Positions 22,003 to 56,191 of a stretch of DNA of 64,000 bases are shown here, in pieces (the first letter of the stretch is position 1; every line of letters starts with the position of its first letter). Both the position numbers and the translations under genes were made by a program. This stretch comes from a virus. A model generated the notes under the pieces. The model was not told the origin of the DNA and did not search any database. It worked only from the letters and a program-made list of their open reading frames with translations. The stretch covers positions 22,258 to 86,257 of the IMG/VR virus record IMGVR_UViG_3300043410_000542; one strand, written 5' to 3'.

Positions 22003-22626
22003 ATGATTACAGTAGATTTATTACAGGCACTATGCCCAAAGACAAAGCGTTCAGTTTTAGAATTGTACGCACAACCTCTACACGAAGTTGCAACATACTA
22101 CGATATGTATGATAATATGCATCGTGCGGCCGCATTCGTTGCTCAGACAGCACACGAATCAGGTGGCTTTAATTTTGTTAAAGAAAACTTGAACTACAGT
22201 GCTAAAGGTTTGATGGGTACTTTCAAAAAGTACTTCCCTAACGAAGCAATTGCTAAAGAGTATGAGCGTAAACCAGAGAAGATTGCTAACAGAGTTTATG
22301 CTAATCGTATGTCTAATGGCGATGAAGCATCAGGTGATGGCTACAAGTTCTGTGGTCGTGGTTTGATTCAATTGACTGGTCGTGCTAACTATACAAAGTT
22401 TGCAGAAGACTTGGGTATCAGCTTAGATGAAACAGTAGCATACCTAGAAACACCAGAAGGTGCTGTAAGTTCAGCTGGTTGGTTCTGGGACAATAACAAC
22501 TTGAACAGCTATTGCGACAAAGACGATTTTGTTACATTGACAAAACGTATCAACGGCGGTACTATTGGATTAGAAGATAGACAACATCATTATCACATTG
22601 CACTAGACTTGTTACAAGGTCATTAA
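22003..22626 (+). CDS. Glycoside hydrolase family 19 endolysin
   Basis: AFVAQTAHESGGF, ENLNYS, GRGLIQLTGRANY, SAGWFW, TKRINGGTIGLEDR. Confidence 0.92.
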   Translation: MITVDLLQALCPKTKRSVLELYAQPLHEVATYYDMYDNMHRAAAFVAQTAHESGGFNFVKENLNYSAKGLMGTFKKYFPNEAIAKEYERKPEKIANRVYANRMSNGDEASGDGYKFCGRGLIQLTGRANYTKFAEDLGISLDETVAYLETPEGAVSSAGWFWDNNNLNSYCDKDDFVTLTKRINGGTIGLEDRQHHYHIALDLLQGH

Positions 22627-35282: not shown

Positions 35283-35317
35283 CTATGATAAATACTCTAT
35301 TACATAGGGTATTTACC

Positions 35318-35485
35318 ATGGCAAAGATCGTAGAAGATGTACTAGTCATCAAATTCAGCAAAATCGTTAAAGATTCTGAAACAGAAACTTCAGGAATCGC
35401 AGGACATGACGTTCAGCAAGCATTAGAACAAGTCGCCCAAGAATTAGTTGGCGACACCGTTGTCGTAGAAGTGGTAAGAGCATAA
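35318..35485 (+). CDS. Small hypothetical late protein
   Basis: MAKIVEDVLVIKFSK...; late promoter/hairpin at 35287-35315. Confidence 0.7.
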   Translation: MAKIVEDVLVIKFSKIVKDSETETSGIAGHDVQQALEQVAQELVGDTVVVEVVRA

Positions 35486-35841
35486 TGGCACAAACTACTA
35501 TATTAACTCTTTTGCCTCAAACTAACGCAGTTGTAGTTGGTACTAAACAGCCTGCAGCCTGCTACTACGTTTCAGGTAAGATTATGCAAACAATCACATG
35601 GAAAGCTACAGGTTTCATCGGAACAGCAGTAGTTCAAGCTAGTCTAGTTGACGATCCACAAACTGACAGTGATTGGTTTACTGTGTATAACTTAGTTTGT
35701 ACATTGAACAACGGCAACGGCGGAACATTAGATACCCCTAAATTTGCGTACATGAACATTCAAGGTAACTTTGCATGGGTTCGTGCTAAAGTTACATCAT
35801 ATACTTCAGGTACATTAGATTATTTGAAGGTCTGTTACTAA
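35485..35841 (+). CDS. Hypothetical beta-rich (probably structural) protein
   Basis: Coupled ORF; QASL...DWF...GNFAWVRA. Confidence 0.7.
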   Translation: MAQTTILTLLPQTNAVVVGTKQPAACYYVSGKIMQTITWKATGFIGTAVVQASLVDDPQTDSDWFTVYNLVCTLNNGNGGTLDTPKFAYMNIQGNFAWVRAKVTSYTSGTLDYLKVCY

Positions 35842-35842
35842 G

Positions 35843-38536
35843 ATGGCTACGATTGTTGTTTATGGCGGTGGTTTTCAGCCGTTTCACGTAGGTCATTTAT
35901 CTAGTTACCTACAAGCAAAGAAAGCATTCCCTAATGCCGCTTTATATGTTGCTGCTAGTAACGATACTAAGCAACGTCCTATCCCGTTCAAAGATAAACA
36001 ATTCTTAGCACAGCAAGCTGGTGTTAAGGATCCAATGGTCGAGACTAGAAATCCTATCAACCCAGTTGAGATTTTAAGTCAGTACGATCCAAACAAAGAT
36101 GTGTATATCATTGTTCGCAGTGAACGTGATCCTATGCCATATACAAAGAAAGATGGTAGTCCTGCATATTATCAGCCATATGTTCCGGGCGAACCAATGC
36201 AACCTTTCAGCAAACATGGTTATGTGTTTGTGACAAAGAAGCACACGTTCATGGTCGGTGGACATGAAATCTATTCAGGTACTCAGGTGCGTGACATGTA
36301 TACTAGTGCAAATGACAAAGGTAGAATGGAATTGATCCATGAACTTTATCCTAATAGCAAACAACAACTAACAATTAAGAAAATGCTAGACAAGTATTTG
36401 GCTGCAGGCCCAATAACTACAGGAAGTGCTGTGTCTAAACTAAAACAAAAGAAATTAGCGGAACATATTAAGAAGATTCGTCCTCTGTTGAAAGAAGCTA
36501 CAGGTGAACAAAAGTTAAAGTTAATGAAACTTATGAAATCTGCTTTAAATGAGAATAGAATCATGGATCGTAACGCATTGATTAATGCTTACTATGTTTC
36601 TACAAAAGGTGACCGTCACAAAGTTGCAGAGAAGATTCCCTATTATCTATTAGACAGGCTAGTGGGGTTATTGACTAAGAAATACAATATCACAATGAAC
36701 GATATTGAAGTTCGTCCTGCCGACAAGAATCAATATCGTAGAACACACCAGCCTGAATTAGCAGAGAAGAAAGAAAATGATATCGGTGACGAGTTCACAG
36801 ATCCAACTGCTAAACGTGCATTAGACTTAGCTAAACAACATTATCCGGGTTCCAAGTCTAAACAAGAAGCGTTTATTAAGTTTGTCCAACGTTCATTAGC
36901 TCACGCCGAGCAAGATGATAGACAACAGGATCAACAGATTCAACGTTTAGAACAAGAGTTAGCACAGATTAAACAAGCGTTGTTGAATCAACAAGGTGTT
37001 CAAGAAACAGCATTGCAAGGTCAAGATGATTTAGATGCAAAACGTCAATCACTACAGCAGATGGAGCTTGAGCCTGGTCATGACAAAGAAGCTATTCGTC
37101 AACGTAAGTTAGACTTAGATAGAGAAGCACGTGCCAAGAACTTACAAGAGTTCGCAGTAGATGACAACAGTGGTGACAGTGAAGATGCATTCTTCAAATA
37201 CGCCAAAATGTGGTACAATGGTGACTTGCAAGTACAACAACAAGTTGAACAAATCTTAGCTAATGCTGGTTGGGAAATCGGTGAATTAGAATCAGAAGAA
37301 GGTGGCGCATTCATCGTTCAATCTGGTGATGAAAATGGTGACACTTACCTGGGTTGGTCAGCAGAACAACTTCAAGGTTTAAATGAGTTCGCACCGAACG
37401 GCTTTGATGGATTTGAAGATGACAATAGAGTACCGATGCACTTTGTCGTTGAAAAAGAATTGTATAACCGTCGTAGTAAGTGGAAGAAGTCTAGAGATGC
37501 TGATGGCGTTATCTTATTTGCTACTAAACAACAAGCAATTCAAGCCGCAGAAAAGTTCAACAAGCTAGATCCAAATCGTGAATTCGCTTACGGTGGGACA
37601 CAAATGGTTCATGTAGATGATGAAGATTTAGATGAAGGTTTCGACAAAGAAGAATTCCGCAGACACATGAAAGATTTGGAAGCACGTGAAGAATTACGCA
37701 AGACTGATCCAGTAAGTGCAAAAGCATTAGACTTGCGTGGACAACTGCCACAACAATCTAAAAAGAAACCAGAAGATGATTCAATGAGCATCAATGATCC
37801 ACGTCATCCTGGCTACTCTTATACTGAGATAGGGCATCACAAAGTTGACGAAGGTGATGTAGTTCAATTTCCTAAGAAGCATCGCGGTGATATAAGTGAC
37901 ATGCACGAATGTCCAAAGTGTGGCGGAGACTTACAAGGCGGCAAGTACATGGGGCATCAAGTTCAAGTATGTATGCCATGCAAGCAAGTATATCTTCCAC
38001 CTAATAGTGGTATTGACCAACAGGGCAATAAGATTAAAGAAGCTATCGGTCGTAGAGGTATTCTTAAAGGCTTAGGTGCAGCAATGGCTGCAGGTGCAGC
38101 AGGTAAAGCAAGTGCTATCGCAGGAGCTTTTCCAACACCAAGTCATCAACAAGCTATGTACAAAGCGGCCGCAGATAGTAACGCTGCCCAAGCTCGTGCT
38201 GATGCAGCCGAGAAAGCAAAGCGTGATGCACAGCGTTTGAAACAAGGTACAGCCGACATTGAAAGACTAAACAAAATCAACTATCACGGTGGCAAAGTTA
38301 CTCCTATCAATGCTACATGGGATGGCGACAGTGACTTCATGGATGTAGATGGTACAAAGTACGCTATGGCAAGTAGAATGCCTATCAAAGGTGATGAGCC
38401 TGGCAATATGAAACTTGTATCTACTAAAGAAGGACGTCAAGTTTACATGTGGACACGCAACAGCTTGAAAGGTGTTGTAGGTCGTTACTTCTACCCAGCA
38501 CCAGCAAACGAATCCGACGACTATTTGGACGAATAA
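35843..38536 (+). CDS. Multi-module protein: N-terminal HIGH-class cytidylyltransferase-like domain, about 8 short modules, a Zn ribbon and a Tat-like peptide
   Basis: YGGGFQPFHVGH (HxGH) and SGTQVR; CPKC...CMPC; modules bounded by LNE/LAE/VQE/LQE/LNE/LDE/VDE/IKE. Confidence 0.75.
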   Translation: MATIVVYGGGFQPFHVGHLSSYLQAKKAFPNAALYVAASNDTKQRPIPFKDKQFLAQQAGVKDPMVETRNPINPVEILSQYDPNKDVYIIVRSERDPMPYTKKDGSPAYYQPYVPGEPMQPFSKHGYVFVTKKHTFMVGGHEIYSGTQVRDMYTSANDKGRMELIHELYPNSKQQLTIKKMLDKYLAAGPITTGSAVSKLKQKKLAEHIKKIRPLLKEATGEQKLKLMKLMKSALNENRIMDRNALINAYYVSTKGDRHKVAEKIPYYLLDRLVGLLTKKYNITMNDIEVRPADKNQYRRTHQPELAEKKENDIGDEFTDPTAKRALDLAKQHYPGSKSKQEAFIKFVQRSLAHAEQDDRQQDQQIQRLEQELAQIKQALLNQQGVQETALQGQDDLDAKRQSLQQMELEPGHDKEAIRQRKLDLDREARAKNLQEFAVDDNSGDSEDAFFKYAKMWYNGDLQVQQQVEQILANAGWEIGELESEEGGAFIVQSGDENGDTYLGWSAEQLQGLNEFAPNGFDGFEDDNRVPMHFVVEKELYNRRSKWKKSRDADGVILFATKQQAIQAAEKFNKLDPNREFAYGGTQMVHVDDEDLDEGFDKEEFRRHMKDLEAREELRKTDPVSAKALDLRGQLPQQSKKKPEDDSMSINDPRHPGYSYTEIGHHKVDEGDVVQFPKKHRGDISDMHECPKCGGDLQGGKYMGHQVQVCMPCKQVYLPPNSGIDQQGNKIKEAIGRRGILKGLGAAMAAGAAGKASAIAGAFPTPSHQQAMYKAAADSNAAQARADAAEKAKRDAQRLKQGTADIERLNKINYHGGKVTPINATWDGDSDFMDVDGTKYAMASRMPIKGDEPGNMKLVSTKEGRQVYMWTRNSLKGVVGRYFYPAPANESDDYLDE

Positions 38537-52744: not shown

Positions 52745-53494
52745 ATGCCACAAAACAAATATCATTGGACAAGAGACACTGTAGATAATAGAGACCACGT
52801 ATTCGCACCGAGACTAAGTTCTTTGCCTACATCAGTAGACTTACGTAATAACTGTTCTCCGGTTGAAGACCAAGGCGACTTGGGAAGTTGTACAGGTAAT
52901 GCTATTGCAGGTATCATGGAATACTTAGCACGTAAAGCAAGAAAGACTACTGATGTAAGTAGATTATTCATTTACTATCAAGAACGTTTACTTGAAGGTA
53001 CTGTAAATTATGATTCAGGTGCGTACATTCGTGACGGGATCAAGGCAGTAAACAAGTATGGTGTACCTACTGAAAATCTATGGCCGTATGATGTTAGAAA
53101 ATATACATACCGCCCAACACAGGCAGCTTACACAAATGCTGCAACTAGAAAAGCAGTATCATATCAAAAATGCGCTAACTTTGCAGCCGTAAAATCAGCT
53201 CTTGCTCAGGGTTACCCTGTAGTTATCGGGTTTGACGTTTATGAGAGTTTTGAAAGTGACACAGTAGCACGTACCGGTATGATGCCAATGCCTAATAAAG
53301 CACGTGAACAATTGTTAGGTGGACATGCTGTTACAATCGTAGGATATAACGATACTACACAACGTTTCATTGTTAGAAACTCGTGGGGGACAAGCTGGGG
53401 AGACCATGGATATTTCTATATGCCCTACGGTGTTATTCAGGATACTACAATGTCTAGTGATTTCTGGATAATTACTTCTATCACAAACCCTTGA
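52745..53494 (+). CDS. Papain-like cysteine peptidase (C1A)
   Basis: VDLR, DQGDLGSCTG (catalytic Cys), GGHAV (His), VRNSWGTSWGDHGYF (Asn). Confidence 0.92.
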   Translation: MPQNKYHWTRDTVDNRDHVFAPRLSSLPTSVDLRNNCSPVEDQGDLGSCTGNAIAGIMEYLARKARKTTDVSRLFIYYQERLLEGTVNYDSGAYIRDGIKAVNKYGVPTENLWPYDVRKYTYRPTQAAYTNAATRKAVSYQKCANFAAVKSALAQGYPVVIGFDVYESFESDTVARTGMMPMPNKAREQLLGGHAVTIVGYNDTTQRFIVRNSWGTSWGDHGYFYMPYGVIQDTTMSSDFWIITSITNP

Positions 53495-53527: not shown

Positions 53528-56191
53528 ATGAAAATCAAACACTTACAAGAAAATTTAACCCCTGCATCAACCCCTAGCGTTAAGACTATTCCTCCTGAAT
53601 TCGGTCGTAGCAATGAAATGCTAGAATCAGGTGCAGGTACTACTGGCGCCGGAGCAGTTGCATCAGTATCAAGTCCAGTCGGTGGAATGCAACGTAGAGG
53701 TAAAGGCTCTATGTTTCAAGGTATCAAGACAAGCGCAAAATATCCTAACTCAGCCGCAGTCAAAGAAGAAGCAATGGGGACATTCGCTGCTCTTAAGGGT
53801 TTAAAGACTTGGCAAGTTGTTATTTTCAATAACTACTATGCAGGTAAGTACAGTGACTATCGTGGAAGATACTATTATGTATTAGCAACTAGCCCACAAG
53901 AAGCTAAACAAGTTGTACTAGATAATGCAGATGGCATCTTGCAAGAACTATTAGCAATGAAGTCACACAACGGTAAGAAGATTCTTCCTCGTGGCTCTGC
54001 CGTTCGTATTACATCCGACCGAATTGGTAAGATTGAAGACGGTACAGTTGCAGGTCGTATGAGTACAGCAGGCTTTAAGAAAATGTTTGGTCCACAAGGT
54101 CCTGTAATGGTTAAGCTAAGTGGCGGCGCCGTAGTTGATATGCAGGATCCAGTAGTGCAAGGTAGTGACCTTAAGACTGTAGCTAAAGCTGACTTAGGTA
54201 GTAATTCAATGAATCTACCTAGTGGTTACGGTGATGTTGTTCAACCACAAAAAGTAAGTGAAGAACATTTAGATGAAATCTTTAATCCAACATCAGGCGT
54301 TGCACGTTTTTTAAGAGCAGCGAGTGCATTTGCAGGTGATTACATTCCTGTAGCTATCGGTGCAGCAGGTACATTTGCAGCTACGACCGCGGTATTAGGT
54401 CCAGTAGCAGCGATGATGGCAAGTAGTACAGTTGGTAGTCAAATTCTACAAACAATACAAAATCAACAAAATAAAGTACCAGGTGTTATTCAACAAATGG
54501 TCGAAAAGTATTTCGGTAGTGAACAAGAAGAAGTTGAATTTGCTTTGATTCATGCAAAGGCAGCATTCTTGGGTCAGAGAGAATTTAGATGGAGAGGCCA
54601 ACAATGGCCTGTTACCCTAGAGAAAAATGCAGCAGAAGCAATTGTTGAAAAGAATGATAGATATTGGTTAGAACAACAAGCTCGTCAACAGCAGCAACCT
54701 GCATTTGCCGAAGCTAAGAAGGCTGCTAACACTAAGACGGTAAGACATGCTTTAAGTAAGCGTCCACCGGCTAAACTAAGCGACAAAGAACAAGAAAAGA
54801 AAAAATCTGAATCTGATGCAGCTTGGGAAAGACTAATGGCTTATGCTGCTGCACAGGAAAAAGAAGTAGATGAAGCCAGAGTTGGTAACAGAATGAGCGA
54901 CATTAGTGTTGGTAGTCCAAAGATTGTCAACTACAAAGGTAAAGCAGTGGGTGAAGTTGGTATTGACCACGAACCAAGTCCAGGCAATGGCCCTTATTAT
55001 TGGAAACATTATCTAACTGGTAAGTACATGGTTGGATATGATACTAAACAAGAAGCATTAGCTGACTTAAAACATCTAGTAATGCAAAATGAAGGTCAGC
55101 AAGGTGTGGCGGAAGCAGGTGAGTGGACTAAGTTACCAAATGGTAACTGGAGAAACATGCACACTGGTGCACAACAATCAACACCTCCCAAGACAAAGAA
55201 ACCTCGCAGAACAATGGGACTAAACGCTAGTTTAGAACAACATGCTGATGACAAGATGAAAGAATTAGGTCATAAGTTTAAACCTGTGAAAGAAGGTTCA
55301 GAATCAGACCGCATCCAAGCATTGTATGACAAGCTAGAACGTTTTGAAGAACGTCTAGGTTCTGATGATCCTAGAGTACAAGCACTCAAAGATGAAATTC
55401 GTGGCTTGAAAGATGAGTACAGAGTAGTTGGGCAAAACACTGCAAACTCATTGAGAGGTGTAACAGAAAACTCTATGGCTGATTTCTTTGCCAAAGCAGC
55501 ACAAGAAAAGTTTCCAAATGCTTTAGTTCGTAAGAACGGTGAGACAATTCAAGAACCACCGAAGCGTGAAGTTCCTCCAGCATTGCCGAAAACTCCGGTG
55601 GATGTTCCAGCATTGCAACAACAATTAGTAGACTTAGAAAAGAGATACGAGCAACTAGGTGGTGACTCATGGCAATATGCTGACCGCATGATGGACAGAG
55701 ACCGTGAAGCGCAGCAAGTAGGTCAACAAATTAGGTATATCAAGCAACAACTTGCTAATGCAGGAAATCAACTTGATGAGAAATCAAAGAGCCAGGCACA
55801 ATTCAGAACAATGGCAGCAGTAGCACATAATCCAAAGTTCGCTAAGAAAGTTGGTATCAAGCAATCTGTTGGTAAAGAGTTTCACAAAGCAGACAAAGGT
55901 GTAAACTATAAGTCATTGCCAAAGAAAGTAGATGAAGCTGAAATTTCAGAAGAAATGTTAGCTAGTGAACTATACAAAGATTTCCAAATCTTTAGTAAAG
56001 GCAAAGACAAAGCAATCTCGGGTAAAGCTAAAAGCAAAGACTTGTCAGGTAAACCAAAAGATAAAGAAATCATTGCTAAAGTAACTAAGATGGCAAATGA
56101 AGATAAAGATCCATGCTGGAACAGCTACAAGCAAGTCGGCATGAAGAAAAAGAATGGCAAGACAGTGCCTAACTGTGTACCTAAGAAGTAA
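53528..56191 (+). CDS. Multi-module putative internal head polyprotein
   Basis: MKIKHLQE leader; about 12 short unrelated modules bounded by [LVI]-x-E; ends with DPCWNSYKQVGMKKKNGKTVPNCVP. Confidence 0.65.
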   Translation: MKIKHLQENLTPASTPSVKTIPPEFGRSNEMLESGAGTTGAGAVASVSSPVGGMQRRGKGSMFQGIKTSAKYPNSAAVKEEAMGTFAALKGLKTWQVVIFNNYYAGKYSDYRGRYYYVLATSPQEAKQVVLDNADGILQELLAMKSHNGKKILPRGSAVRITSDRIGKIEDGTVAGRMSTAGFKKMFGPQGPVMVKLSGGAVVDMQDPVVQGSDLKTVAKADLGSNSMNLPSGYGDVVQPQKVSEEHLDEIFNPTSGVARFLRAASAFAGDYIPVAIGAAGTFAATTAVLGPVAAMMASSTVGSQILQTIQNQQNKVPGVIQQMVEKYFGSEQEEVEFALIHAKAAFLGQREFRWRGQQWPVTLEKNAAEAIVEKNDRYWLEQQARQQQQPAFAEAKKAANTKTVRHALSKRPPAKLSDKEQEKKKSESDAAWERLMAYAAAQEKEVDEARVGNRMSDISVGSPKIVNYKGKAVGEVGIDHEPSPGNGPYYWKHYLTGKYMVGYDTKQEALADLKHLVMQNEGQQGVAEAGEWTKLPNGNWRNMHTGAQQSTPPKTKKPRRTMGLNASLEQHADDKMKELGHKFKPVKEGSESDRIQALYDKLERFEERLGSDDPRVQALKDEIRGLKDEYRVVGQNTANSLRGVTENSMADFFAKAAQEKFPNALVRKNGETIQEPPKREVPPALPKTPVDVPALQQQLVDLEKRYEQLGGDSWQYADRMMDRDREAQQVGQQIRYIKQQLANAGNQLDEKSKSQAQFRTMAAVAHNPKFAKKVGIKQSVGKEFHKADKGVNYKSLPKKVDEAEISEEMLASELYKDFQIFSKGKDKAISGKAKSKDLSGKPKDKEIIAKVTKMANEDKDPCWNSYKQVGMKKKNGKTVPNCVPKK

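Follow-up and report, generated by a model that had tools for sequence, protein, structure and literature searches.

The window analyzed here is a stretch of 64,000 nucleotides (positions 22,258 to 86,257) of the IMG/VR virus record IMGVR_UViG_3300043410_000542, and it carries an ORF of 897 codons, P0001, whose product looks like a polyprotein assembled from modules (Table 1). The relatives of P0001 are in fact mosaics of shuffled modules ranging from 285 to 1417 aa. The first module of P0001 is a nucleotidyltransferase-like domain, instead of which some other family members start with hydrolase domains of the HD/RelA-SpoT type. The zinc-ribbon-like module that precedes the last part of the protein is followed in relatives either by a twin-arginine (RR) cassette, as in P0030 and P0039, or by VDE joined directly to IAGAFP, as in P0025, P0044, P0049, and P0068. 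The C-terminal tail follows a pattern, D[YW]x[DEA][EQ], that ends 29 of the 67 family proteins irrespective of the preceding module, and we infer that it might be an address tag. Ahead of the gene pair to which P0001 belongs stands the motif GATAAATA, presumably similar to the T4 late promoter; it is found 12 times in the window against 3.5 expected, with 11 matches on the plus strand, most of them 15–30 nt ahead of structural or leader-bearing genes. Cultured relatives of the protein were not found by megablast, and tblastn gave only two weak matches, both in the N-terminal enzyme domain.

Table 1. Features of the P0001 locus, in positions of the window.
Feature	Position	Strand	Basis
GATAAATA motif, 5' of the gene pair 35485-38536	35287..35294	+	Motif count in window
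P0001, 897-aa mosaic, polyprotein-like ORF	35843..38536	+	Sequence; 17 [LIVM]-x-E motifs
N-terminal cytidylyltransferase-like (HxGH nucleotidyltransferase) domain, aa 6-91	35858..36115	+	Pfam PF01467, 32.2 bits, E 1.4e-07
Zinc-ribbon-like module CPKCGG...CMPCKQ, aa 690-714, just 5' of signal	37910..37984	+	Weak Pfam Zn_ribbon_TFIIB match, E 0.043
I-K-E junction, aa 731-733, putative cleavage after Glu733	38033..38041	+	Sequence; Glu position in homologues
Tat-like signal cassette AIGRRGILKGLGAAMAAGAAGKASA, aa 734-758	38042..38116	+	Sequence pattern; TAT_signal 14.2 bits
n-region AIG of cassette		+	
RR of cassette	38051-38056	+	
GILK of cassette	38057-38068	+	
h-region of cassette	38069-38104	+	
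c-region K-A-S-A of cassette	38105-38116	+	
Cargo module IAGAFPTPS...PANE	38117..38512	+	AF2: long helix and small beta domain
Predicted long helix of cargo	about 38138-38281	+	AF2
Predicted small beta domain of cargo	about 38336-38497	+	AF2
C-terminal tail SDDYLDE and stop codon	38513..38536	+	D[YW]x[DEA][EQ] tail

A preliminary description of this DNA had claimed that the last module of the protein opens, right after I-K-E, with a signal of the twin-arginine (Tat) type composed of RR-x-[I/F]-L-K, an Ala/Gly h-region, and an AxA site. All these elements are present in the ORF, which reads ...NKIKE, then AIGRRGILKGLGAAMAAGAAGKASA, then IAGAFPTPS...: the motif is RRGILK (aa 737-742, RRxFLK with I in place of F), the core is formed by 12 Gly, Ala, Met, and Leu residues, and the c-region K-A-S-A (aa 755-758) places a Lys at -4 and A-S-A at -3 to -1. 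Nowhere else is P0001 as hydrophobic as in this segment, although the segment is itself only weakly hydrophobic (best Kyte-Doolittle means of 1.34 over 12 aa and 1.15 over 19 aa), and going by these means its h-region appears to fall short of the hydrophobicity of Sec signals and of membrane spans. The segment shares with bacterial Tat signals the RRxFLK-type motif, the weakly hydrophobic Gly/Ala h-region, the basic c-region residue, and the AxA site; the textbook features given in the available text of the source are RRXFLK, a weakly hydrophobic h-region, a basic "Sec-avoidance" residue in the c-region, and processing by SPase I (PMC9360617). Unlike those signals, it lies 733 residues into the ORF and scores below the Pfam cut-off. 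As encoded, it starts at residue 734 of 897, away from the N-terminus, and would become N-terminal only after a cut at Glu733, with an n-region of three residues.

In residue shuffles of P0001, a strict pattern (RRx-phi-phi-K, 10–20 uncharged residues, small-x-small) appeared once in 20,000 and a looser Tat-like pattern six times in 20,000, and the real site is the sole pattern match among the 105 ORFs of at least 100 aa (29,308 aa) in the 86-kb record. The strict shuffles, together with the conservation in homologues described below, led us to reject a chance resemblance. Against Pfam TAT_signal the window peptide gave 14.2 bits (E 0.045; cut-off 22.7), and 15.1 bits in a six-frame search. 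Scans of the whole 164-aa or 897-aa protein with this profile gave no match, and the six-frame search of five related records gave no site above the cut-off, the best reaching 21.4 bits. In the AF2 model, pLDDT is below 50 across the cassette. An internal translation start was also discarded as a general explanation: no in-frame ATG, GTG, or TTG occurs in the 15 codons 5' of the signal in the window and in five of the 11 related loci, and where a related locus does have an in-frame start upstream of the signal, its position varies and none is conserved.

The expectations that the RR pair would be conserved and that a Glu would stand ahead of it at module starts were both borne out. Among 65 homologues, which are clustered metagenomic proteins related to one another such that the counts do not represent independent events, 41 carry RRx[FILV][LI]K, and all 41 have a Glu at four (31 proteins) or five (10 proteins) residues ahead of the first Arg. 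These RR-class proteins hold 27 distinct signal sequences. The residue before RR is S in 31, T in seven, and G in three; the C-terminal edge is AxA in 39 and AxG in two; a basic residue is found among the last six of the signal in 38; and the length from Glu to AxA is 25–26 aa. A V, I, L, or M lies two residues ahead of the nearest Glu in 30 of the 41, and in the others it sits one or two positions away. Another 18 of the 65 homologues are devoid of the 25-aa segment, and their IAGAFP is immediately preceded by [VLIA]-x-E, such that the Glu site and the AxA site would yield the same mature N-terminus; the AxA edge coincides exactly with the hydrophobic-x-E junction point of these signal-less relatives. 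In five homologues a non-RR hydrophobic cassette is found, whose residues at -3 and -1 are still small and whose c-region has no Lys. From the Glu-site and AxA-site boundaries, and from the existence of segment-less and non-RR forms, we conclude that the segment is a discrete cassette. As 24 of the 65 homologues have no RR signal, export of the cargo cannot be obligatory.

On a tree of the cargo module, the signal class switches at least 12 times, and decayed RK, KR, or KK forms of the cassette were not seen among the homologues. Comparison of the signal codons with those of 11 related loci gave 4–12 synonymous and 1–9 nonsynonymous differences, with RRG[IV]LKG and GAAGKAS unchanged in all the related-locus rows listed. 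Among 46 scanned family members, 13 matched Pfam TAT_signal (PF10518) at E<=0.01, 10 matched TIGR01409, and seven matched formate_TAT; P0003 reached 27.7 bits with TAT_signal, above the cut-off. In P0003 and P0043 the signal module is located at the true N-terminus, behind MKINEIVTE. Together, motif and conservation make it probable that aa 734-758 are a real export signal.

The other element of the configuration is the Glu junction. P0001 has 17 [LIVM]-x-E motifs, a pattern that is more frequent than in shuffles (792 versus 587 +/- 20) and concentrated where homology breaks off (0.35 versus 0.15 at breakpoints). Modules found upstream of the signal in 21 proteins have homologues downstream of it in 16 (63 pairs), an arrangement that fits modules that become separated. 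Many family members begin with MKLRQLFEN, MRAKQFTEA, or MKINEIVTE, and at least seven other ORFs of the window have leaders similar to a capsid-targeting sequence (CTS), for example, MRANEFVTE and MRAREFINE. These leaders resemble MKTYQEFIAE of the T4 internal proteins IPII and IPIII. According to the available portions of the published accounts, CTS residues 8 and 10 (I-x-E) govern the processing of IPIII (PMC9026906), and in cleavage of the T4 type the cut follows Glu while P3 is hydrophobic (PMC9026906, PMC5694885). IPI, IPII, IPIII, and Alt of T4, which have a CTS, are processed by gp21, and are injected along with the DNA, share with the proteins described here a short N-terminal leader ending in hydrophobic-x-Glu, the Glu site itself, and a very diverse cargo behind a common leader. 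They differ in that here many modules are joined in one chain with internal junctions, in that P0001 starts with MATIVVYGGG and has no CTS-like leader, and in that the piece behind the junction starts with an export signal, a feature that we did not find described for T4-type internal proteins in the literature searched.

The cargo that follows the signal was modeled with AF2 on P0002, giving a helix at residues 33-80 and strands within 99-152; the beta domain modeled alone had a pLDDT of 85.6. The I-A-G-A-F-P start is the best-conserved part of the cargo, with A27, G28, and A29 invariant in 66 rows. As to its function, Pfam and PHROGs returned nothing and the ESM Atlas no usable match. With Foldseek, neither the complete model nor its beta domain matched a PDB entry at E<=0.001, a wide VIA-align search gave only coiled-coil rows for the helix at Z of about 5 and a best Z of 3.7 for the beta domain, and the best hit in BFVD (E 0.037) was to an unnamed protein. 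Superinfection exclusion, a role that the preliminary description had offered as an example, is thus pure conjecture, as the cargo matches no known fold.

Our preferred reading, to which we assign a probability of about 45%, is that a genuine Tat-type signal, in the form of a portable 25-aa cassette, heads the C-terminal module in a cargo polyprotein encoded by an uncultured giant phage related to T4. The 897-aa protein would be made late and then taken into the prohead, where a T4-type head protease would cut after Glu at the hydrophobic-x-E junctions, including that between I-K-E and the following Ala at 38041/38042. The freed C-terminal fragment would begin with A-I-G-R-R-G-I-L-K, that is, with a Tat signal having a three-residue n-region. 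It would enter the next host along with the DNA, the Tat system would move it to the periplasm, and signal peptidase I would cut after A-S-A to release IAGAFPTPS..., the predicted helix and small beta domain. The arrangement suggests that cutting may uncover an address by which the last module would reach the host periplasm. The steps are not equally secure: for exposure of the signal by a cut at the Glu site the odds seem even to us, and export of the last module in the next host after injection is doubtful. The comparison of homologues thus supports in part the idea of the preliminary description that maturation cleavage would unmask the signal. It may be that a Tat motif does not strictly require a free N-terminus, as internal Tat motifs work in the dual Sec-Tat membrane proteins described in the available literature.

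The last point opens an alternative, which we consider unlikely, in which the producing cell would read the uncut segment as an internal Tat (or Sec) signal: the 733 upstream residues would stay in the cytoplasm, the C-terminal module would be translocated and released by signal peptidase, and hydrophobic-x-E would be a generic linker. There is a precedent in the dual Sec-Tat Rieske protein Sco2149 of Streptomyces, which uses an internal Tat motif (PMC9360617). The actinobacterial protein resembles P0001 in having the motif inside the polypeptide. It differs in that, by the available description, its motif precedes the last span of a polytopic protein and is uncleaved, whereas here the motif comes after about 700 soluble residues and has an AxA site; the internal Tat motifs described in the available sources follow Sec-inserted membrane spans.

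A different cargo counts in favor of the preferred reading and, in its leader-plus-Tat forms, also offers a second argument for this alternative. Using a gene of a neighbor phage as query, the cassette E|D[MIL]SRRGFL..A.A was found in 58 among the 120 GH19 relatives listed. In 46 of these it stands behind a M[KR]A.EF..E leader, such that the protein consists of a T4-CTS-like leader, the Tat-like cassette, and a cell-wall hydrolase; in 10 it is internal, preceded by an unrelated module of 60–160 aa; and two have the RR at residue 37. In cultured phages, GH19 domains carry the annotation endolysin. For the N-terminal leader-plus-Tat forms the simpler reading is export in the producing cell as a secreted endolysin, with no need of unmasking. 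The leader-plus-Tat part of the GH19 protein itself had no match in cultured phages, all matches starting at query residue 34 or later. Peptidoglycan, the substrate of GH19 hydrolases, is periplasmic. P0026 has a further cassette ahead of yet another sequence. Against an uncut internal signal stand the Glu at -4/-5 in every RR-class protein despite many different upstream modules, and the occurrence of homologous modules on both sides of the signal, by which the same module would end up in different compartments.

It is also conceivable, and in our view quite improbable, that a protease in the cytoplasm of the producing cell, instead of or alongside one in proheads, cuts the Glu sites and that the exposed signal exports the module there, for example, in lysis control or envelope remodeling, with no injection involved. 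The sequence evidence for this is identical to that for a head protease, and the GH19 cargo would be most sensible late in the producing cell. In addition, a gene for a papain-family peptidase (52745-53494) adjoins another mosaic protein of the window. Enzymes of the papain family prefer a hydrophobic residue at P2, whereas the hydrophobic residue of the junction is at P3. A hydrophobic P3 with Glu is the rule of T4 gp21-type enzymes, and gp21, by the available accounts, acts inside proheads.

The preferred reading, with its head protease, turns attention to the Peptidase_S77 family. By tail sheath, the nearest cultured phages are Atu_ph07 and PA5oct, and both encode such a T4-type (gp21-type) prohead protease. 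The record of the window, a fragment that is 25% complete, and ten related fragments, none above 38% completeness, gave no Peptidase_S77 match. Using the PA5oct/Atu_ph07 alignment, we obtained 80 Peptidase_S77 loci. Ten of the corresponding records had no homologue of the cargo, and five of these ten had no TAT_signal-like match; both sets include a complete genome of 328 kb. With both searches negative in the opposite contig sets, protease and cassette were never seen together in one genome. The flanks of the protease loci have almost nothing in common with the record of the window, and the protease-bearing contigs seem to belong to another sub-lineage.

A different use of the segment, which we regard as distinctly improbable, is as a membrane-inserting N-terminus of an ejected protein: once exposed by proteolysis, the Gly/Ala-rich stretch would tether the fragment to the inner membrane while the DNA enters, instead of making it a Tat substrate. 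The stretch is the protein's most hydrophobic one and, as we take it, resembles viral fusion peptides. Ejection proteins with predicted transmembrane helices do exist, as in SPN3US gp47 according to the part of the source available. However, a 12-residue core with a best 19-residue mean of 1.15 is poor for a stable span, and a stable membrane anchor as such was rejected on core length and hydropathy. The segment also has marks specific to Tat signals, namely the invariant S/T-R-R-x-phi-L-K, the Lys in the c-region, and the AxA end, and 18 relatives do without it. A further possibility, chance resemblance or a remnant without function of fusion to a secreted protein that used to be separate, is very improbable: the family clearly fuses and splits its proteins often, and P0003 and P0043 do carry the module at a true N-terminus, but the shuffles, the 27 distinct sequences that keep the same rules, the pattern of codon differences around unchanged motifs, and the lack of decayed cassettes among the homologues all speak against it.

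Among other giant phages, the ejection or inner-body proteins of phiKZ, 201phi2-1, and SPN3US are a parallel to the preferred reading in that many head proteins are cut after Glu at short motifs, often at several sites each. They differ in using A/S/G-x-E motifs and in belonging to a different lineage, and the available portions of those reports mention no export signal at a new N-terminus. Judging by titles or abstracts, we found no paper on a twin-arginine signal in phage ejection or prohead-processed proteins, and none of the papers listed described a Tat-exported phage lysin. We likewise found no paper in the literature searched with a Tat signal buried behind a head-protease-type motif in a phage polyprotein. 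In chloroplasts, proteins of the thylakoid lumen lose the second of their two signals to a type I signal peptidase. Their bipartite transit peptides offer a likeness in that a processing protease removes the first part and may thereby expose a second signal of the Tat or Sec type, as stated in the available text (PMC10267391). This is an analogy only, as capsid packaging and injection would be the first transport here and a viral head protease the unmasker.

Even read modestly, Tat-exported GH19 lysins and other modules from uncultured giant phages would form a further, Tat-dependent class among secreted phage proteins. Only tentatively do we go further and propose a two-stage delivery to the periplasm, in which the head protease would split the polyproteins packed in the capsid and thereby expose Tat (or Sec-like) signals, after which the separated pieces would be injected with the DNA, re-exported through the inner membrane by the host Tat system, and trimmed by signal peptidase. 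If this is true, the route would parallel, in a virus, the bipartite chloroplast transit peptides and be a new way of addressing a pre-made protein, with a secretion signal that is silent in the polyprotein and switched on by the capsid maturation protease. As the Tat system exports finished, folded proteins after translation, it would be a fitting route. The cassette would then be a natural, portable device of 25 residues for protease-gated export, and injected phage proteins would reach beyond the cytoplasm to the periplasm, where receptors, the cell wall, and envelope defenses are possible targets.

The sequence at the junction of P0001, the mosaic protein in which the preliminary description saw a hidden Tat signal, was re-read exactly: I-K-E, AIGRRGILKGLGAAMAAGAAGKASA and IAGAFPTPS occupy the coordinates listed in the table. 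On the basis of sequence comparison we regard this segment as a genuine Tat-type export cassette, placed where a module begins in what is probably a processed cargo polyprotein. A strict Tat-like pattern appeared in 1 of 20,000 shuffles of P0001 and a loose one in 6 of 20,000, and when all 105 ORFs of 100 aa or longer in the whole record are considered, the P0001 site alone matches. The window's own peptide scores 14.2 bits against Pfam TAT_signal, below the cut-off of 22.7, and therefore the case rests on the comparison with homologues. Above a curated cut-off P0001 matches a single family, with a cytidylyltransferase-like domain at residues 6-91.

Coordinates and carriers of the features discussed (window positions unless another record is named)
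Feature	Location	Remark
P0001 ORF	35843-38536 (+)	897 aa
I-K-E	38033-38041	
Tat-like segment	38042-38116	AIGRRGILKGLGAAMAAGAAGKASA
Cargo start	from 38117	IAGAFPTPS
C-terminal tail of P0001	38513-38533	DYLDE
GH19-like gene of the window	22003-22626	without signal
GH19 hydrolases with leader and Tat-like signal	L032:1474-2148; L033:904-1584	loci in relatives G005 and G004
Papain-family cysteine peptidase	52745-53494	PF00112, 80 bits
887-aa mosaic protein	53528-56191	
Leader-bearing genes	13269, 53528, 56193, 60609, 61322, 62896, 63429; 11194, 14494, 15227 in G000	G000, whole record
GATAAATA copies	3555, 10081, 13242, 16232, 29580, 29637, 35287, 50120, 52719, 53500, 60596	
Second (non-RR) cassette	P0009, P0010, P0017, P0018, P0063; P0134, P0141, P0158	last three, examples of GH19 relatives
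Enzyme N-termini	P0007, P0008, P0014, P0029, P0031, others	

The window covers bases 22258-86257 of an 86,257-bp IMG/VR record (CheckV completeness 25%). Its products include a contractile tail sheath, tail tubes, a head-tail adaptor, long fibre-like proteins, a clamp-loader subunit, PhoH, DnaJ and a ClpA-like ATPase, which marks the window as part of a giant myovirus genome. Comparison of tail sheaths places Agrobacterium phage Atu_ph07, Sinorhizobium phage Phosso and the Pseudomonas PA5oct group nearest among cultured phages (45-47% identity). Twelve copies of the element GATAAATA are present where 3.5 would be expected, 11 of them on the + strand, mostly 15-30 nt upstream of structural or leader-bearing genes; we regard it as a candidate late-promoter element.

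With the 164-aa C-terminal piece as query, HMMER against 1.84 billion representatives (26 hits) and two word-index searches (2 and 58 hits) gave 67 proteins combined. The anchor [IV][AS]GA[FIL]P is present in 65, all of which except P0003 and P0043 carry the cargo module inside long mosaic proteins of 341-1417 aa; the N-terminally truncated P0004, which lacks the anchor, likewise has it within a long mosaic protein. A script put 41 of the 65 in an RR class and 18 in a direct class, in which hydrophobic-x-E abuts IAGAFP; 2 were hydrophobic without RR and 4 fell elsewhere. Row inspection showed a K/R-started uncharged stretch in three of the last as well (P0009, P0010 and P0063), which brings the final count to 41 RR, 18 direct and 5 non-RR hydrophobic proteins, with P0046 alone unclassed. 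A Glu-preceded RR motif, of the kind that the preliminary description proposed to look for in related proteins, is found in 41/65, the nearest Glu lying four residues upstream of the first Arg in 31 and five in 10. These 41 proteins hold 27 distinct signals, in which RR follows S (31), T (7) or G (3), the cassette ends in AxA (39/41) or AxG (2/41), and a basic residue falls within the last six positions in 38/41, features that agree with the Tat signal as described in PMC9360617. Some members are also recognised by independent family models (of 46 scanned, PF10518 matched 13 at E ≤ 0.01, TIGR01409 10 and formate_TAT 7). Twelve viral-contig loci share the layout; between the 11 related loci and the window the signal codons show 4-12 synonymous and 1-9 nonsynonymous differences, and RRG[IV]LKG and GAAGKAS are retained in all rows shown of this comparison.

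The cassette behaves as a portable unit. In the 18 direct-class proteins V/L/I/A-x-E abuts IAGAFP, such that a cut after this Glu and, in the RR class, a signal-peptidase cut after AxA would yield an identical mature N-terminus. An upstream zinc-ribbon module (...CMPCKQVYLPPNSGID..GNK) is followed, depending on the protein, by IKE and the cassette (P0001, P0030), by IENE and the cassette (P0039), or by the signal-less VDE|IAGAFP (P0025, P0044, P0049, P0068). In a tree that uses the first 58 residues of the cargo, few columns in all, and omits those of the signal itself, the class label switches at least 12 times, and well-supported branches force at least six switches for the RR class; thus the cassette was often gained, lost or swapped. 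The five non-RR versions form a distinct hydrophobic cassette (E|GWKQK..., E|SLKGKL...), which looks Sec-like because it keeps small residues at -3/-1 and lacks the c-region Lys. Such a second portable cassette (E|[GS]W[KR]..., E|[GS]LK.KL...) takes the same position ahead of both cargo types and may be a Sec-type or signal-anchor version. P0026 has an additional RR cassette at residues ~680-710 (MEE|DTTRRGFLKG...SDA) before sequence unrelated to the IAGAFP cargo, and its own IAGAFP module is of the signal-less type.

When five related records were searched in six frames with TAT_signal, two 225-aa genes emerged besides the polyprotein sites, both GH19 hydrolases (55-56 bits), starting MRANEFVTE|DMSRRGFLGALGAGAMAASGVAQA|K... 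and MRINEIITE|DMSRRGFLG...; they may be Tat-exported lysins. The GH19-like gene of the window scores 25.4 bits, just below the cut-off of 25.5. In the best 120 of 1,345 GH19 relatives, RR lies within five residues after Glu in 58 (distance 4 in 56, 3 in 2), and the residue two before that Glu is I (20), V (17), L (17), T (3) or G (1). Of these 58, 46 have the signal at the N-terminus, preceded by an M[KR]..E[FIV]-type leader, 10 have it internally after an unrelated module (RR at residues 65-158), and 2 have RR at residue 37; in most of the other 62 the same leader is followed by another hydrophobic segment, frequently of the second cassette type (E|GWKDW...). In cultured phages GH19 domains carry endolysin annotation, and the GH19 substrate lies outside the inner membrane, which together give the best functional hint that the cassettes are export signals.

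That the Glu site is a cutting site is inferred from the sequences. In favour, [LIVM]xE is commoner in the 67 proteins than chance predicts (792 occurrences, shuffles giving 587 ± 20), and 35% of BLAST homology edges have one nearby where 15% would be expected, these edges not being independent. Leaders such as MRANEFVTE, MRAREFINE and MKLRQLFEN stand at the start of many family members and of at least seven ORFs in the window, and resemble the T4 IPII/IPIII capsid-targeting sequence MKTYQEFIAE (NC_000866), in which residues 8 and 10 govern processing (PMC9026906, section 2.6) and cutting falls after Glu (PMC5694885). Across the 86-kb record at least 10 genes share the leader M-[KR]-x-x-E-[FL]-[IV]-x-E (MRANEFVTE, MRAREFINE, MKIRQLTES, others). 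Against cutting, P0001 itself has no N-terminal leader. A C-terminal DY[LIV]DE(K) tail closes 29/67 family proteins, P0001 and others in the range P0006-P0062, whatever module precedes it and mostly where the leader is lacking; it may be an alternative address tag. Peptidase_S77, the T4 gp21-type prohead protease, is above cut-off in both Atu_ph07 and PA5oct, which supports processing; against it, the protease is absent from this 25% complete record and ten related fragments, and no genome with both protease and cassette was found among the fragments and protease-bearing contigs examined. The papain-family peptidase gene lies directly upstream of the 887-aa mosaic protein, which has a long Gly/Ala-rich hydrophobic stretch immediately behind L-D-E.

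We propose that a cut after Glu733 would expose the cassette, which signal peptidase would then remove. For the full chain including delivery by injection we give a probability of 0.45 at most, injection being the weakest link; cutting and export may instead both take place inside the producing cell. Alternatively, the internal signal could act there with no cut, and internal Tat motifs do occur in dual Sec-Tat proteins. Homologous modules, however, are found before the signal in 21 RR-class proteins and after it in 16 (63 ordered pairs, e.g., P0001 residues 597-670 and P0037 residues 744-816), which is readily understood if cutting separates the modules and sits awkwardly with a signal that divides an uncut chain between two compartments. 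The segment might also be a membrane-inserting N-terminus of an ejected protein; it is the most hydrophobic part of P0001, yet weakly so (best 19-residue mean 1.15), closer to what a Tat h-region would show than to a membrane span. As for a gene-fusion relic, no half-decayed RR form occurs among the 65 anchor-bearing homologues.

An AlphaFold2 model of the 164-aa piece (66 aligned rows) leaves the signal (residues 1-28) unstructured and predicts a helix (33-80) and a small beta domain (99-152; pLDDT 85.6 modelled on its own), and no structure search run gave a meaningful match to the cargo fold; its suggested role in superinfection exclusion is a guess. The family N-termini include HD/RelA-SpoT-type hydrolase domains (14/46) and NMN/CTP-transferase-like domains (9-10/46). 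If delivered as cargo, such enzymes might have the alarmone or NAD metabolism of the host as their target. Conceptually the closest precedent lies in thylakoid-lumen proteins, whose bipartite transit peptide may expose a Tat or Sec signal once its first part is removed (PMC10267391). Our literature searches turned up no account of a phage protein with a Tat signal following a head-protease site; each element is known by itself, Tat signals as well as T4-type processed head cargo, and their combination is new.
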